From: a virus
Strand: one strand, 5' to 3'
Length of the DNA stretch: 64,000 nucleotides
IMG/VR virus record: IMGVR_UViG_3300003872_000001
Span: 32,001-96,000 of that record
The notes under the pieces were generated by a model that ran no database searches, was not told where the DNA came from, and worked only from the letters and a program-made list of their open reading frames with translations. Shown here piece after piece: positions 1,478-55,825 of the stretch. Every line of letters begins with the position of its first letter. Positions within the stretch are counted from its first letter, which is position 1. Position numbers and translations under genes: made by a program.

Positions 1478-1909
1478 CCTTTTTATTCTATATGTATCGT
1501 TACTACATATACGATTAGTTGGTTTATAACATTATCTTCATAATGTAACTAATCAGCTAGTACTCTCATACTAGAGTAGACTATATCATGATCTGTTATT
1601 CAATTAGATAACAGACCCTCTACATTTCGTCTTTAAGGGGACCATACCCCACCACTTGGCGCTACTCCCGTCAGGGATAGTCGTTGAACTCACACACTCC
1701 TACTAGAGGATAGTTCTCACTATTTAAGGTGCTTCGCTGCGTCGATTACCTACATATCCTACAAGGTTTTTACGATGCCTATTGACTATATTACGTCATA
1801 GGTATTACAGTCTATTTCTAGCTGTAAGTCGTACTTGTTGGCTTTAAGGGTTCCCCGCAATTAGAAGAGTTTGCATATAATGTCACCACTATATGGGCCT
1901 AGATAAATA
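1478..1909 (-). ncRNA. Group I intron 1 (ORF-less, 432 nt) in the helicase gene
   Basis: Minus strand carries P (AAUUGCGGGGAA), Q (AAUCGACGCAGC), R (GUUCAACGACUA) and S (GAUAUAGUCU). P1 is exon GGCU paired with GGCC (U.G at the splice site), and the intron ends in G. Splicing gives RNFSSA|HKILTITNHQ. Confidence 0.92.
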
Positions 1910-3061
1910 AGCCGAGCTAAAATTCCTAACTCTATTAAATAAGTCTAGTACATCATTACCAGTTGGACCTGAAGTAACACATCCGGTTGTTGGTAACTTA
2001 TATAAGTAATCTATTAACATAGCATGGATTTCATATCCATTTGCTTCTAATTCTAATACTTTATTAAATAAAGATTTATAAGTCCACTCACTTGGGTTAA
2101 CTCTCATCATTTTAACATGATAACCATTTACACTTAATCTCTTTCTAATGTAAGATGCTACTTCAGCACCAGTAACTTTAGTTAGATCTGGTAATTCATT
2201 ATTTTCGTTATAATATAAATATCTATACATAAATTCTGTAAATACTTCACTATCATCTTCAAAACTTATATATAATATAAGTGGCTTCTTAGTCGGATCA
2301 TCTAAGGCTGGTTTATTATGCATAGCGAATTGCATAAACAAACTCTGCATAAACCCAGATTTATAATTATGTTGTAATGCTGCTATCATACACATAATGC
2401 CACGTCTGAATCCATTTTGTGTCATTTCATTAAGTTCTTTCCATCCACTTAATAGCTTACCTCCTTCAACTTTTTGGTTTTTAACTTTATTTAATACTGC
2501 ACCTAATCCATTTTCATCACCAATATCTAATTCGTCCATGATACCAGGATCCTTAGTTCTCGCTTTAAGAGATAATGCTTCTAGTGCAGTTATTAATTTT
2601 TGTGTATAAGCTGTAATGGTATCACCGTCTAATTTACCCGTTCTCATTTGATATGATGCCTTACTTATAGTAGCTTTCAGTTTCTCCTCTTTATAATAAT
2701 TATTAATAAGATTTCTAATACTAACTACTGTTCTCTTAAGGCTAGCTTGTGAAAATTCATTATCAATAGCATTTGTTACAATTTTACATAGATCTGGTTT
2801 ATTCTTAAATATTAAATTAATACTTTGTAATAAAGAAACTTTATCATAATTATCAGGATTATTTAATAGATCTAATATTAGATGTTTTAAGTCATCTTCT
2901 ACACTACCGTCACCACCTATGAACTGATTATCCCTATTGTCACTGGTAAAGACAGATAAGACTGTTCTTACTAGGTCTTTACTATCGCTAGTATCATTCT
3001 CTATTTCTTTCTCTCTATATAAAAGAGTTAACATCTTTATTAATATCTCTAGTTTAGACAT
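1910..3061 (-). CDS. DnaB-like replicative helicase (phiKZ gp118-like), exon 1
   Basis: Walker A-like ALQHNYKS, GWKELNEMTQNGFRRG, ISFED and Walker B MLIDYL. It is divergent from the capsid operon, as in phiKZ. Confidence 0.88.
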
Positions 3062-31170: not shown

Positions 31171-34100
31171 TTATGACGCAAAATTAGTATGTTTACTAAT
31201 GTCTATTGTTGGTTTGGGAAATTCTGTTCTCCTATGTTCTATTTGCTGTTTAGGTGTTGTATCAAATACACTACTTATAACATCACTAACTGCATTTGTA
31301 TTATTTTTTTTATCACTTTCCATCTTAGTTAATAACTCTAATATTTTTAATTGTATATTAACTGTATAACCAATATTATTATCCATATTAGCTAATAGTT
31401 TATTAGAGTCCTGGCTAACCATATGTAAATCATTTAATGGCTTATTTATGTCCTGAGGAACAGGTTGATAATGCTTAGTAGGTACGATTCTCTTTTTAGG
31501 TTGTGACGTAACCACACCAACGATAGCTGCGTTATTACTATTTATCTTAGCAATTTTATCATTAGGTAGATCTCTATCAGTTGATAAAGCATTATCACTT
31601 TTTATAATATGATTAGTAGCTTTAGTTGTATTTTGTTTTTTAGCAAATTGACTATAAGCACTTTTATAATCACTAGGATTATTGAAAATATTACTACCTA
31701 ATTTATACCCGACAGTTGAACCTATAGCATGATTAGACTTAACAGTATTTAGGATACTGTTATTAGTATTATTATTGGCAGGAATGAGCTTAGATCTACT
31801 AGTTTTATCACCCAATCCTGGTTTAATACTAATATGTTTAACCGTACTTGGTATATTGTTATTAGCAGGAGTAAGTTTATCAGTTGCTGTATGTTTAACT
31901 CCAATATGTGTTTTATTTTTATCATTCTTTTTAGGATATTTTACTTTTATAGTTGGCTTAATAGGCTGACCCTCGGCATTGACTGGTGCCGAATCTTTAG
32001 AGAATAAGTCAAAGCCCAATATCTGTTTAGATACAGCTGATTTTAAAGATAGTTTATCGACTACCATATATTTAATAATCCAACCAGCATCCCATAATAG
32101 TAATGACCATCCTACAAAAGGAACTAACCTTGCTGCTATTTTTGCACTCAATTCACCTACTAGTTCTGCACCAGCTTTTTCTCCTAATTTTTCTAAAATT
32201 TTAGTTTTAAAACTGCGGAGTATATCTATGATCTTAGATGCGACACCTGACTTGCTTATTTTTTCACCTACTTTAAGAGCTTCTTCCCCGACCTTACTAA
32301 ATGTCTTACCTATCTTTTCAGCTCGCTCAGTTCCAAGTAAAGTTTTAGATGCATACTTACCAACAGCACTGATTCCTTTACCTGCTAATTTAACTGCACC
32401 AACGCCAGCTCCTATTACTGTGCTGCCTACACCTTTAACTGCTTTTACAACACCCCCTAATAATCCTGGCATAAATTTTTTTAGAAGGCCTCCTAATTTA
32501 AATGGAAGTTTAAGTATGTTTTTACCGATATTTTTTAGTAAACCAGGGATATGTTTTAAACCGCCCCATAAAAGTTTCTTTAAACCAGCTACAGCTATAC
32601 CCATAGCAGCTAAAACTAAGCCAGGAATACCTTTACTAGTAAAACCTTTACCTAATTTGTGAAGGGATTCTTTAGCAGCTCCTTTAGTGTGTTTATTCCA
32701 ACTCTTTAACTCATCTCTCCAGTTACCATCTCTTCTACCATCTTTATCTGTATCGAATATTTTAGCATCTTTTTGAGCTTGAGTTTCTTTTTTATGGAAT
32801 GGGGATAGTTTAGATAACAGACCAGCGGCGCCACCGAGTATCACTCCTCCAGCTCCTACTAAACCTTCTTTTAATGTACTTTCCTTACTACCTGAGTCTT
32901 TAGTCGTATCATTAGATGTTTTTTTAGTTTCAGACTTCTTGGATTTATTCCAATTTTTTAATCTTACTTTCCAATTACCATCTCTAGTGCCATCTTTATT
33001 TTGGTCGAAGAGTTCATTTTCTTCTTTTATCTTTTGTTCTTTTTTATATAACGGGTTCAGTGTATGGAATAATCCTGTAATTCCTTTTTTCAATAAGCTA
33101 GCAGCTTCTCTATCTAAATCAGTCCTATGTATGCCAGTAACTAGTGATTTTATTTTAGCAAATTTTCCAGTTTTTATGCTAGTCTTATTGTCTAATATAT
33201 CATCTTTAATAAGTTTCTTAGGTATATGTAAGCCAAGGCCTTCAGCATATTCAGAAATGTTTTTAACAATACCTTTCTTATATGCTTCAGAGTTATAAAA
33301 TTCTTCTTTAAGCTTTTTATACTCGCGCAAATCTACATGTAAATATTTACTAGTTATATCTAATAACTTTTCTTTTGTTTTATTAGCTGCGTCTAATGGA
33401 TTTAAATTATCTTTGACCTTATCATATCCATCTTTTGCCATATCAAGATGAATATCTTTAGCTAAAATCGCATAAGCTTTAAGTGCTTTAGTATATTCCT
33501 TTATTTCAACATAATGCAAAACTTCATTAATGGCTGATTTATGCTTAACACTTAATTGTTCATTATAATCTTTCATTTCATCCAGAATACTCATTATTCT
33601 TTTTTTAGTTGAAAATACCATATCAGAATTTTTAATAACTGCTTGAGATAAATATATTTTATCTCTGACACTGAATGAATTTAAATCTATTTTAGATGCT
33701 GCTGCACTTATATTATTAAATTTTTTTGTAGTAAATGTTTTAGTTTTATTATACATACTATCTTCTGTAGTACGTTCTTTATCTATAAAGTGTTCAGCAT
33801 TATTAATTAAAGTATCTATTAGTTCTGGTCGCTTAGGAACCTTATGTTTACCCATTAGCTTATTAAATAAGCCTGATACTTTATCTAATTTTTTGCTATT
33901 AATAACTGTCTCATCGCCATGAACTAAACCTACTATATCATCTTTAGTTTCTGGATTACCAGTATAGCCACCTTGTTTGAATTTAGGTATATCACTTACA
34001 TGTACAGCATCTTTATGTTCAGTTTCGTTAAACTCATAGCTACTAATATTAGGTAAGTTAGGCTTATGTCTCATTTTATTAAGAATGATCTTACCATTTT

Positions 34101-51870: not shown

Positions 51871-52299
51871 ATGTCTATTGAATTCGATAAGGATAAGTTT
51901 GATGTCACAATATCAAATGGTGTGGCTAATATCACATATACAGATAAAGAGGCGTTCTTTAAGAACACTAAAATTCCTAAAAAGGTTCTTAAGGAAGTAT
52001 TCGATTATGAGAATGAATACATCCTGGCTGCAAACATAGAGGGTGCAAAGCAAGCCAAGAACTTGATGGGAGAAAACAAAAACCTAGATGAAGTAGTGAC
52101 GGAACTTCCATTTTCACCATCGGCACGTGGTAAGGTTACGGTAGTAGGTAAACGATCACAAAAATTCCGAAGTCCAAAAGATGGTAGTGAGATTGTAAAA
52201 TCCACACTAAGGACAATCGTTAAAAATCCATTCTTAAAAGTAAGTGACTCTAAGATAAAAGAACTCACCAAGGATATGACTGAGACACTTCTATCATAG
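51871..52299 (+). CDS. Small K/E-rich protein, possibly nucleic-acid binding
   Basis: 142 aa, own promoter, AAGGAG RBS and a more GC-rich codon usage than its neighbours. Confidence 0.7.
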   Translation: MSIEFDKDKFDVTISNGVANITYTDKEAFFKNTKIPKKVLKEVFDYENEYILAANIEGAKQAKNLMGENKNLDEVVTELPFSPSARGKVTVVGKRSQKFRSPKDGSEIVKSTLRTIVKNPFLKVSDSKIKELTKDMTETLLS

Positions 52300-52650
52300 T
52301 CCGTAAATTCTACCCAGCTATAGTTTACATATAGTATGGTTGTTTAGCTGCATAAGCCACTTGTTAAATCGTAAAAGAAAGAGTGCACATATCCTACAAC
52401 TCTAGAAGTTTAGTAGAGATCAAGTGATTTCGAAATGATGAAGGATAAATCTTGTGTTTAGTCATAAGAAGATTAGACACAAGCAGTTCATAAAGAGAAC
52501 GGATACTATGTAACGAATAGTATCGAATACACATAAGATAGACCTTAGTTACTCTTTACTCTTAAGAGTAACTCAATAACCTATTGATAATACTCTACAT
52601 TAGGGTTCTAAATAGGTAATACTTAATACTGTAGGCTGCAGAATAAGATA
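52300..52650 (+). ncRNA. Putative structured ncRNA related to the peripheral domains of the resident group I introns
   Basis: ORF-free region with serial hairpins. It shares GTAG..TCAAGTGA..TCGAAATG, GCAGTTCATAA.GAGAACG and stem-TGTAACGAA-stem-GAA with introns 3 and 4, but has no P/Q/R/S core. Confidence 0.7.
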
Positions 52651-52659
52651 AGTATACGT

Positions 52660-52692
52660 ATATACACTAGTAGCATATGCTACTAGTGTATA
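52660..52692. terminator. Palindromic hairpin (CACTAGTAGC family)
   Basis: tatacactagtagc-atat-gctactagtgtata. Confidence 0.78.
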
Positions 52693-52701
52693 TTATTTTT
52701 T

Positions 52702-53571
52702 TTAGTAGTCGTTAAAACCTACTTTAGATGCAGTAACATTAGCGTCCGCTCCATCTTTATTAGGTACAATCATATCAGTGTCAGGTATTTTATTAAGTAC
52801 ACTTAACGCTGACAATGTTGTTTGTCCTAAGTCCAAAACATTTTCATTGTTCATAGTTATACCAGTCCAGTCAATAGAAAGTTCTTTACCTTCTCCGGCT
52901 GAATTCATATTCCTTTGCCCAGTTCTTTCGCCGTTTGATTTAGGCATCATATTAACTCTTAGCCAAGCATCAACTACAACCTTTTGAGTAATATCAGGTT
53001 CTATAAATAACACCGTACCGGTATAAAAATCTGGAGTATAAATACCAATAGTATCCATATTTTTAATTAAATTAGATACTAATGGTTTTTTAGTATCAGG
53101 ATCCATCATACCATATCGGATTAGAATATCAAAGAACTTAGTAATAGCTTTATTAGCTTTTTCTTTATAAGTTGTAGCTAATGAACTTCTAGCTCTTTTG
53201 ACATCAGTTATTGACTCTTGTTGTTCACCGCCACCGCCAATTGGTGTTTCATCAAATTCAACTGTTAAACCTGAAGTTAAACCAGTTATAGTTAATGGAT
53301 GAAGTTCTATAAGAGCTTTATACGTAGCTATCCATTTTGCCGTGTCTTGCATATATTGAAAAAATCCAGGTGTTCGCAGAACGATCGGGATTACATTATT
53401 CGATACATATGACGCATTCGATATCCATTCGTCATATACTTTACCATCAGCAGCGATAGTACCTATCTTAGGCATATATCCTTGCTGTCCACCATCAACT
53501 AAGTTTGCGGTTGGTGCAGCTTCTGCAAAAAGTTTATTCTTTTCTAAAACAGCATTTTTTAATCTTGCCAT
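52702..53571 (-). CDS. Tail tube protein (phiKZ gp30-like)
   Basis: 289 aa downstream of the sheath gene; ELHP..I.GL...LTVEF, YGMMDPDTK.P and LFIEPD..NMMPK motifs. Confidence 0.85.
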   Translation of the reverse strand: MARLKNAVLEKNKLFAEAAPTANLVDGGQQGYMPKIGTIAADGKVYDEWISNASYVSNNVIPIVLRTPGFFQYMQDTAKWIATYKALIELHPLTITGLTSGLTVEFDETPIGGGGEQQESITDVKRARSSLATTYKEKANKAITKFFDILIRYGMMDPDTKKPLVSNLIKNMDTIGIYTPDFYTGTVLFIEPDITQKVVVDAWLRVNMMPKSNGERTGQRNMNSAGEGKELSIDWTGITMNNENVLDLGQTTLSALSVLNKIPDTDMIVPNKDGADANVTASKVGFNDY

Positions 53572-53650: not shown

Positions 53651-55825
53651 TTATTTTTTAGCTAAATCACTTAAACGATGAGCTTCTATTGTTGTTACCT
53701 GAACAGAAAGCATATTAGAGCTGTAGATACTTATTATCAAATTCCAACTATATCCACGTTGTATATCAGCATCTGTAAATACAACTTCTGGAATAATTAC
53801 AAACATACCTGCAAATCGATCTTTAATATTTAGGTTAACAAAATCTACAACTTGTTGTGCGAATTCTGCTTTAGTAAGAGCCACAGAGCCAGTGAAGTTA
53901 CGCCATGCCCAGTCAGCTACTTTTTGTAATGTACAAATTGCTGCAACTGTAAACCAACTATTAAGAACAGAAGTATCATTATCATACACAGTTTGAATAG
54001 CAGGGAAACTATATTGTCGTCTATCATATGGTTGTGCCCATACTAAACCACTATTCCATAAGACTGGCTTAATACCTGCTGGTATGAATTTTGGTTCATA
54101 ATCTATTAATTCTGTTAATATATTTCCTGGAGCTTTATCAAATAGATAAACTGGATTCCATTTACCATCGCCTGCACCCATCATTTTAGATGATTTAATA
54201 AGAAGGCTGTAAGTAGCAGGTATTGCATCTTGTGTACTATTATCAGGCATCTTTCCTGTACCAGCAACTAAAACACCTCTCATAACAGATGTACCAAAAT
54301 ATGTTGATTCCGGAGTTAACTTCAATCGAGTTTTTAGTGCAACAGCAATAGCTCTTTCATCACTGAGTGGTAATGTCTTTGTACCTAATGAAGCATCATG
54401 TGTACCCATAATAACTGCGGTATCTTTTCTAACAGCTATAAAATTACATAATTCTTCTTTAGTTGGTAATGTAAAACCTGAATCATACATAACACTTTCG
54501 ACATTGATTGCCAAATCCATTACAGTACTATTTATATCTAAATATTTCTGCATTTCAGCAACTACTAATTTTTCAAACATTTCATTTGATAGCGTACCAT
54601 CCGAACCACCATTCATAAAGATAGGTGTTTTATAAGAAAATTGTGTTACAGTTTCACCTTTAGTAGGTGTTACATTATTGTCTACTATCAAGCTAAAGTA
54701 GTTGATAGATTTACTAGATTCAGCATTAAAAATATCAAGTAGATAAAATTGTTCTGGGTTCTTAGCAAGTGTAGTGCCAGTATCGGCAAAGTCAAACCAT
54801 GTGGATGTTGCAGCACTTAAGCCATCTTCCCAAACAGTAGGAGTATTGCTAACGTATTTAGCTTCTTCCGCCATAACTAAACCTAATACAAGTTCATAAT
54901 TCTCTTTATAAAATTTCCTATTACCAAAATCACTATATTTAAGAGGTAGTAATGGGTTACCTTCGTTGAACCAGTTGTTATCAAAAACAGCATCAAAATC
55001 ATATCGTGCTTGAGTTAATGGATTTATCGCTTTTTCTCTAAATGTAAACATTACACTTGGTTCACCGTACAATGATCTCATTCTAACAGGTGTAGCATTA
55101 GGATTTGGTCGTTCGAATAAAGATAAGTTATATGGTAATGCTTGATTAGCTGTTAGCAATCTGTCATCTATATTATCATGAAGAACTTTATCTATACTAA
55201 AGCCAATATTGTTATATGCTTCACCCTGATATGCAGCTACAAATTCTAGTATAGGATACATAGTTGAAGTAGTTGCTGTACCAGTTGAAGTTTTTCCTTT
55301 TAGGTTACCTGCTTTAGATTTAGCAGTACCAAATGTATACATTGGGTCAGTCATAACTTCAGTTACTATATTAACTTTATGACCACTAATCGTAGGTGTG
55401 GTAGTATTAGCTATCGGGTCACCGTTAGTGTCTAGTACATAATCACCTGTTGATGTTCTTTTATAATTAGGGATTTGATCCGCTACTATATCTAAATAAA
55501 CTACTATATTAGATTTAATACCAGCATCAGTAGGTATAACTCGCTGAGCCATAACTGTAGAACCAGCTCCGACAGCACCAGTTAAAAATCTAGTAGAATG
55601 ATTATAATACTGTTTATTCATATCAAATGTTTCTTCGCCATACATAAGTAACATAGGTCCACCAGCTGTAAGTGTAGGGACTGTTGTTCCTTTTCTAGCA
55701 AAAATGAAACTTTTCAATAGATGTTGCGGTATTTCTAATGCACCAGGTTTAATAACTCTGGTACTAAGGTCATCAGTACCTAAGCTCTTATTCATTGGGG
55801 AACTAGAGATAATATTTAAAGACAT
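53651..55825 (-). CDS. Contractile tail sheath protein (phiKZ gp29-like)
   Basis: 724 aa; GT.D.S.R, IPQHL, YGEETFD, GGSDGT, YDSGF and FPAIQTVYDNDTSVLNS motifs. Confidence 0.88.
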   Translation of the reverse strand: MSLNIISSSPMNKSLGTDDLSTRVIKPGALEIPQHLLKSFIFARKGTTVPTLTAGGPMLLMYGEETFDMNKQYYNHSTRFLTGAVGAGSTVMAQRVIPTDAGIKSNIVVYLDIVADQIPNYKRTSTGDYVLDTNGDPIANTTTPTISGHKVNIVTEVMTDPMYTFGTAKSKAGNLKGKTSTGTATTSTMYPILEFVAAYQGEAYNNIGFSIDKVLHDNIDDRLLTANQALPYNLSLFERPNPNATPVRMRSLYGEPSVMFTFREKAINPLTQARYDFDAVFDNNWFNEGNPLLPLKYSDFGNRKFYKENYELVLGLVMAEEAKYVSNTPTVWEDGLSAATSTWFDFADTGTTLAKNPEQFYLLDIFNAESSKSINYFSLIVDNNVTPTKGETVTQFSYKTPIFMNGGSDGTLSNEMFEKLVVAEMQKYLDINSTVMDLAINVESVMYDSGFTLPTKEELCNFIAVRKDTAVIMGTHDASLGTKTLPLSDERAIAVALKTRLKLTPESTYFGTSVMRGVLVAGTGKMPDNSTQDAIPATYSLLIKSSKMMGAGDGKWNPVYLFDKAPGNILTELIDYEPKFIPAGIKPVLWNSGLVWAQPYDRRQYSFPAIQTVYDNDTSVLNSWFTVAAICTLQKVADWAWRNFTGSVALTKAEFAQQVVDFVNLNIKDRFAGMFVIIPEVVFTDADIQRGYSWNLIISIYSSNMLSVQVTTIEAHRLSDLAKK

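Follow-up and report, generated by a model that had tools for sequence, protein, structure and literature searches.

Core-less RNA elements with the peripheral modules of subgroup-IA2 group I introns in two phiKZ-like phages

Group I introns are generally regarded as surviving only in the form of complete ribozymes, within genes that have to be spliced. In these introns the GNRA loop of P9 docks on P5 of the core, and Golden et al. 2005 are said to have described the peripheral elements of the Twort intron as a ring around the active site. The lariat-capping ribozyme (GIR1) of twin-ribozyme introns is a group I descendant which no longer splices and has its own job at an mRNA end. A free-standing intron piece is known in the tscA RNA of the trans-spliced group II intron of Chlamydomonas psaA. 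A contact of P7.2 with P7 is cited in bioRxiv 10.1101/2021.08.11.455951. In collaborative homing, a free-standing endonuclease gene lies beside an ORF-less group I intron, as for the S-PM2 psbA intron with F-CphI and T4 mobE with nrdB (PMC3984707). In their 2008 survey, Tourasse and Kolsto write that fragmentation 'has not been specifically reported' for group I introns of bacteria (PMC2504315), and a literature search returned no description of a conserved core-less group I intron derivative.

The locus analysed here lies in a window of 64,000 nucleotides, positions 32,001 to 96,000 of IMG/VR record IMGVR_UViG_3300003872_000001; the record has 107 kb and covers about 40% of a phiKZ-like jumbo phage. 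At 52389-52532 (+) the window carries counterparts of P7.1, P7.2, P9, P9.1 and P9.2 of subgroup-IA2 introns, in intron order and outside any intron.

The insertion behind the 142-aa gene

The genes around the locus and the resident introns of the window are as follows.

51871-52299 (+): 142-aa gene, the ORF directly 5' of the insertion
52702-53571 (-): tail tube gene, convergent with the 142-aa gene
53651-55825 (-): tail sheath gene
1557-1919 (-): group I intron 1, Rfam RF00028
9499-9853 (+): group I intron 2, Rfam RF00028
39706-40076 (+): group I intron 3, Rfam RF00028
43726-44091 (+): group I intron 4, Rfam RF00028

The four introns scored 49-84 bits with RF00028, and the introns of the record belong to subgroup IA2 (Twort/AR9-type). 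The 142-aa protein gave no match in Pfam and PHROG searches, and its AF2 model (pLDDT 72.7) gave none in a fold search of the PDB. Its homologues show 35-70% identity, four of them 67-70%, and in many phiKZ-like contigs the family is conserved as a neighbour of the tail-tube gene. Neither blastn with the locus nor tblastn with the protein matched any GenBank phage, and a scan of the reference genomes at protein level returned no match. The promoter of its own which the earlier note gave to this small gene came down to a sigma-70-like match of 9/12, no better than in shuffles; phiKZ-like phages use their own RNA polymerases.

The element lies inside an insertion of about 360 nt, which runs from the stop codon of the 142-aa gene to the terminator. 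The terminator palindrome named earlier was recovered at 52660-52693 (+) with a T run, and it is the sole terminator, none being found earlier. Since no terminator precedes 52660, the element is probably transcribed as the 3'UTR of the 142-aa gene mRNA. The parts of the insertion, all on the + strand, are listed below.

52300-52388 (+): 5' flank of the insertion, with hairpins; intron similarity not detected
52389-52396 (+): ATATCCTA, remnant of the R/P7-P7.1 junction, which in introns is GACTATCCC; the same 8-mer is collinear in the second copy described below
52390-52395 (+): 5' strand of a closing stem, TATCCT, pairing with AGGATA 52442-52447 in the minimum-energy fold
52398-52410 (+): small hairpin AACT-CTAGA-AGTT at the P7.1 position, read from the sequence
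52409-52417 (+): TTTAGTAGA joint (J7.1/7.2), in introns GGAGTAGG; 9-mer identical in both elements
52418-52429 (+): P7.2-like hairpin GATC-AAGT-GATT, loop 52422-52425; loop position 4 (52425) covaries with 52513
52430-52437 (+): TCGAAATG joint, as after P7.2 in introns (alignment to introns 3 and 4)
52440-52452 (+): GAAGGATAAATCT, degraded S element by intron comparison; introns have GAAGATATAGTCT and the second copy GTGAACAAATCT
52442-52447 (+): 3' strand of the closing stem, AGGATA, within GAAGGATAAATCT
52451-52483 (+): P9-like 13-bp hairpin in the fold, loop ATAAGAA (not GNRA)
52486-52500 (+): P9.1-like hairpin GTTC-ATAAAGA-GAAC, near-match to an 18-mer of introns 3 and 4
52502-52524 (+): P9.2-like 8-bp hairpin, loop GTAACGA 52510-52516; stem unlike that of every resident intron
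52525-52532 (+): GAATACAC tail, identical in both elements
52533-52659 (+): 3' flank of the insertion, two further hairpins in the fold
52660-52703 (+): intrinsic terminator from the terminator search, 15-bp palindrome (52660-52693) and T run

The modules reported in the earlier note, namely the P7.1 hairpin, the 52413-52437 block, the P9 hairpin, the near-match at P9.1 and the terminal hairpin, were all located in intron order, the last with the intron loop GTAACGA on a different but paired 8-bp stem. The 52413-52437 block (GTAG, AAGT hairpin, TCGAAATG) aligned to the equivalent block of introns 3 and 4. An AGTAG joint followed by an AAGY-loop P7.2, a layout present in all introns examined, was found at 52409-52429, and the layout of a terminal hairpin followed by GAA at 52502-52527. 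The 19-mer at 52484-52502 is the intron 3/4 18-mer with one inserted A; exact copies of this 18-mer in the window are confined to 40076 (intron 3) and 44091 (intron 4), the chance expectation being 0.01, and outside the window it is present in introns of AR9 and other phages. Hairpins of 8 bp with the loop GTAACGA number five in the 107-kb record, which are the four introns and the element. The GAATACAC tail also forms the 3' end of a complete intron of another phage (L094).

The 401-nt region gave a fold z of -6.2 against shuffles, in accordance with the extra hairpins claimed on both sides of the module, and the 150-nt module alone (z = -4.0) folds into the closing stem/P7.2, P9, P9.1 and P9.2. 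The small hairpin at 52398-52410 is outside the minimum-energy fold, and the second copy has a larger hairpin there. A closing stem at the place of P3 had also been claimed; the TATCCT/AGGATA pair does form in the minimum-energy fold, at the position of P7 and not of P3. Neither flank of the insertion has a second copy in the rest of the genome, so that a repeat family was excluded, and local alignment of the flanks with the intron 5' halves gave similarity at the level of shuffles.

The catalytic core was searched for and found to be absent, as had been claimed. The Rfam search of 52250-52720 returned nothing at the gathering score nor at E<=10, and the element has neither the R (CAACGACTA) nor the S (GATATAGTC) motif, only the remnants ATATCCTA and GAAGGATAAATCT. 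P1-P6, P3, P7 and P8 are missing, and the joint after P7.2 is separated from P9 by 14 nt only. The G-to-A change in TAGTC, which reads AAATC in both copies, removes the 3' strand of P7, and the loss of P1-P6, P3, P7 and P8 would leave neither guanosine binding nor splicing. None of the following group I intron features was found in the element: an RF00028 match at the gathering score, a P7 formed by R and S, P3-P8, P4-P6, a P1 guide with 5' splice site, or joined exons. The C-terminal residue of the 142-aa protein is the same with or without the insert, which indicates that no exon is involved. One half of a split, trans-spliced intron was excluded, there being no 3' strand of P7, no P3, no P8 and no exon. 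A small protein on either strand was excluded too, the two candidate ORFs being unrelated, and no conserved ORF was found after or overlapping the element.

The second copy and the loop-loop pair

An equivalent core-less fragment was found at the equivalent place in a related phiKZ-like phage, IMGVR_UViG_3300028534_000016 (G001). The gene upstream encodes a 140-aa homologue (50% identity with the 142-aa protein); behind it lies a highly structured non-coding stretch of about 640 nt (z = -6.5), which ends with a terminator of its own. Rfam gave no match on the G001 element. Between the terminator of the element and the tail-tube gene lies one additional gene.

L009:4911-6491 (-): free-standing 526-aa HNH homing-endonuclease gene (phrog_559, 9e-98; DUF723, treble-clef zinc fingers)

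No homologue of this endonuclease was found in the record of the window, which holds about 40% of the genome. Terminal 8-bp hairpins with a GTARCGA loop number five in the record of the window and seven in G001, and the non-intronic ones are one element each.

A covariance model built from the window element aligned to G001 over its full length with filters off (36.2 bits, E 2e-6), the order of all four helices being kept; the single-sequence model R1 missed the orthologue under default filters and recovered it with filters off. Aligning the two UTRs with MAFFT did not bring out the structure, and these alignments were set aside. In the model alignment, which is fitted to the model and so favours pairing, 100% of comparable cells were paired and 12 pairs were changed on both sides. 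None of 500 shuffles reached 12 double changes with full pairing, and slid controls were 31-40% paired. The result for P9.2 is independent of alignment choices: the hairpin has 8 bp in both copies, with six pairs changed on both sides and two on one side. P9 in G001 is a 7-bp hairpin with a GCGA loop, four of its pairs being changed on both sides with respect to the window. The two copies agree exactly in the unpaired TTTAGTAGA, AAATC, GCAG and GAATACAC, and the modules fold individually to the same layout in both. The closing stem occupies different places in the window and in G001, and the sequences flanking the element within the insertions barely align. An RNA whose fold is constrained typically shows this combination of conserved joints and loops with drifting but compensated stems, and the conserved loops and re-paired stems from which the earlier note had read constraint on structure are seen directly in the orthologue. 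As two copies are known, the covariation rests on one comparison in a model-fitted alignment.

The 3' flank of the G001 element also contains two tandem hairpins (L011:3759-3860) whose stems are different and fully paired, while the same block of 27 nt makes up the loop in each. Apart from these two places (starts at L011 3765 and 3820), neither phage record contains the block, and no Rfam family matched it.

The loops of P7.2 and P9.2 revealed a second level of conservation. In the phage of the window, the four introns and the element all have L7.2 = AAGT and L9.2 = GTAACGA, and in G001 the six introns and the element all have AAGC and GTAGCGA. The element pair between position 4 of L7.2 and position 4 of L9.2 is U52425:A52513 in the window and C:G in G001, a compensatory difference. 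A pattern permitting all four combinations was applied to IMG/VR and to the reference genomes. It caught 34 distinct introns with an S element, of which 21 had C/G, 13 had T/A and none had C/A or T/G, while chance matches to the pattern were spread 11/9/7/6. Three introns of AR9 have U:G, and the A:C combination was absent from every intron examined. This covariation (34/34) argues strongly for a tertiary Watson-Crick pair L7.2-L9.2 in this phage intron family (window introns and 34 introns in L181-L257), and would give a large family of phage introns a clean tertiary contact. The element follows the same rule in both phages, which suggests that the two arms can lock without the core.

PhiPA3 has both loop states within one genome, so that the loop pair is better understood as an intramolecular contact of the peripheral arms than as a phage-wide code; a phage-wide trans partner, with one loop state per phage, was dropped for this reason. 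The same observation bears on a trans-acting RNA, either a helper clamping intron cores or a decoy for a periphery-binding factor, roles which had been proposed earlier. Introns of this family are numerous in both phages, with 4 in 107 kb and 6 in 138 kb, in either phage the element has the same loops as every resident intron, and the 3'-terminal domains of the phage T4 sunY intron can reportedly activate the core from a distance, as Michel et al. 1992 are said to have found. However, P7.2 and P9.2 are already present in each of the 10 resident introns, leaving no client without a ring, the window P9 loop is ATAAGAA and not the core-docking GNRA, a two-base loop contact would be too weak to join two RNAs, and both loop states in PhiPA3 speak for a contact within one molecule. 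The proposal is left without support and is considered very unlikely.

Relatives, descent and possible role

In seven related loci (L018/L019, L021, L147, L148, L157, L158) the gene is followed by a terminator and the tail-tube gene, without the insertion. The terminator of L018/L019 stands about a dozen nt past the stop codon and is much like that of the window; the terminator palindromes of the window (52660-52693) and of L018:1531-1565 are alike though the upstream 142-aa proteins are 49% identical. Among the sampled relatives, L018 has the highest tail-tube identity (74%) and lacks the element, which indicates that the element is dispensable. Co-occurrence with the 51871-52299 gene, a check proposed in the earlier note, proved not to be obligatory, and a dedicated protein-RNA pair was excluded, as the gene occurs alone in these seven relatives and the model of its protein resembles no known fold. 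The homologous loci were either insert-free or core-less, never a complete intron, no Rfam family matched, and one covarying homologue was found, so that none of the three refuting outcomes named in the earlier note was observed.

The precise insertion between stop codon and terminator, with much the same terminator in an insert-free relative, could also be explained at the level of DNA. The insertion would then be an immunity spacer which breaks the site of the neighbouring free-standing endonuclease between gene and terminator and so shields the genome that carries it, insert-free phages being cut, as in collaborative homing, and the RNA fold being incidental. The patchy distribution and the HNH homing-endonuclease gene directly 3' of the G001 element agree with this, whereas a homologue of the endonuclease is missing from the roughly 40% of the genome in the window's record, and a spacer has no need for conserved loops, compensated stems and a tertiary pair. 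Such a spacer is judged very unlikely.

As regards descent, the element is best read as a catalytically dead descendant of a subgroup-IA2 group I intron. The degraded R and S remnants in both copies point to descent from one decayed intron, and the shared remnants, boundaries and locus point to one origin, the core being already lost in the common ancestor. The covariance model of the element scored 33-50 bits on intron peripheries. With the window model, the L094 intron (49.8 bits) and intron 4 (41.8 bits) both scored above the G001 element (36.2 bits); because complete introns outscore the G001 element, common descent rests on locus and remnants and not on overall similarity. The P7.2 of G001 shares 20 identical nt with the intron of an unrelated genome, L241. 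Given this outscoring, and short modules identical to those in introns of unrelated genomes, modules may have been exchanged inside a mosaic intron family.

An intron subtype with about 20 nt from P7.2 to S and no obvious P8 hairpin was observed at L226:6065-6456, L241:6934-7042 (-), L242:736-846 and L222:706-814 (-), some copies having an endonuclease ORF upstream of R. Rfam scored L226 below threshold (32 bits) and missed L241, L242 and L222. The ancestor of the element may have been of this compact type, with about 20 nt between P7.2 and S as in L226, L241 and L242. In PhiPA3, the CDS of gene 133 (L166:855-1157), annotated as 'putative endonuclease', overlaps the 3' ribozyme part of an intron (R, P7.2, S, P9.2), so that part of this annotation is probably intron RNA.

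The element is a lineage-specific, intron-derived RNA and does not represent a broad class of RNAs. In IMG/VR, a pattern tailored to the pair of elements returned only G001, and a spacing-restricted pattern returned true introns and G001 only from IMG/VR and the reference genomes. In ten phage genomes (AR9, PhiPA3, MarsHill and seven related or intron-bearing IMG/VR records), model R2 found complete introns with R and S only. The exact 19-mer had one chance match in IMG/VR, inside a coding region, and a loose tail pattern gave more than 117 matches, mostly by chance, of which screening left one true intron, L094. Of the undescribed ncRNA class suggested earlier, the intron-derived, core-less structured RNA stands; a class sharing modules with introns while independent of them does not agree with the R and S remnants, and with two copies at one orthologous locus the element is not widespread.

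The rarity raises the question of a neutral relic of an intron/endonuclease cassette, whose decay is recent or whose stems have been refreshed by recombination with mosaic introns. Only two copies exist, patchily among relatives, their R and S remnants are degraded, and a homing-endonuclease gene adjoins the element in G001. Shared modules fit a relic as well, the P9.1 18-mer being shared with introns 3 and 4 and 20 nt of the G001 P7.2 being identical to the L241 intron. Against this, the genes are 50% identical and the flanks no longer align, yet four helices are fully paired, 12 pairs carry double changes and the joints are identical. Moreover, the P7.2, P9 and P9.2 stems match no resident intron in the available DNA, so that recent conversion is not evident. 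A relic of this kind is a serious rival, though less likely than not; it would document the decay of an intron after landing outside coding sequence.

The explanation tentatively preferred, at somewhat less than an even chance, is a cis-acting, tertiary-locked 3'UTR structure kept by selection. The insertion would have arrived most likely with an intron/homing-endonuclease cassette, of which the HNH gene 3' of the G001 element may be what is left. In an untranslated region splicing would not have been needed, leaving the core free to decay. The parts retained would be the P7.2 arm and the P9/P9.1/P9.2 arm, joined by the putative U52425-A52513 loop-loop pair. Selection on the fold seemingly holds this scaffold, given the conservation of its joints and loops, the re-pairing of its stems and the compensated tertiary pair. 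Its role may be that of a compact structure acting in cis on the mRNA 3' end, for example as an exonuclease block upstream of the terminator. The end of an mRNA would also be protected by a plain hairpin, which leaves the kept loops and the tertiary pair unexplained by a role as stabiliser.

Beyond this cis-acting structure, the peripheral ring of the intron might have been exapted after core loss and have gained an independent function as RNA, perhaps as a tertiary-locked cap protecting an mRNA 3' end and less likely in trans on the many resident introns or their binding factor. Exaptation is a conceivable outcome, on balance unlikely; if true, this would be the first known case of selection maintaining a group I intron periphery that has lost its core.

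Comparison with known systems

The known RNAs nearest to the element are the subgroup-IA2 introns of Twort (orf142-I2), AR9/PBS1 and PhiPA3, which likewise have the P7.1/P7.2 insertion, P9.1 and the terminal hairpin. The AAGY, TAAGA and GTARCGA loops, the GAA tail and the L7.2-L9.2 pair are common to both. Unlike these introns, the element has no P1 with guide, no P2, P3, P4-P6, P7 or P8, no exons and no RF00028 match, and its place is an untranslated region. A covarying periphery without a core in two diverged phages would suggest that the ring may be an autonomous folding unit.

As in G001, collaborative homing joins an intron-type insert with a free-standing endonuclease gene next to it, and the two move jointly. 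The introns in collaborative homing are intact and splice from a coding gene, whereas the element is non-coding and core-less, and the window copy has no adjacent endonuclease. Fragmented bacterial introns and tscA are of group II, while the element is derived from group I, with no partner pieces seen. GIR1 keeps a rearranged catalytic core and is still a ribozyme; the element, in contrast, keeps the periphery only and no catalytic parts, and a covarying core-less fragment of this kind would suggest that pieces of introns may be recruited as non-catalytic RNA structure.
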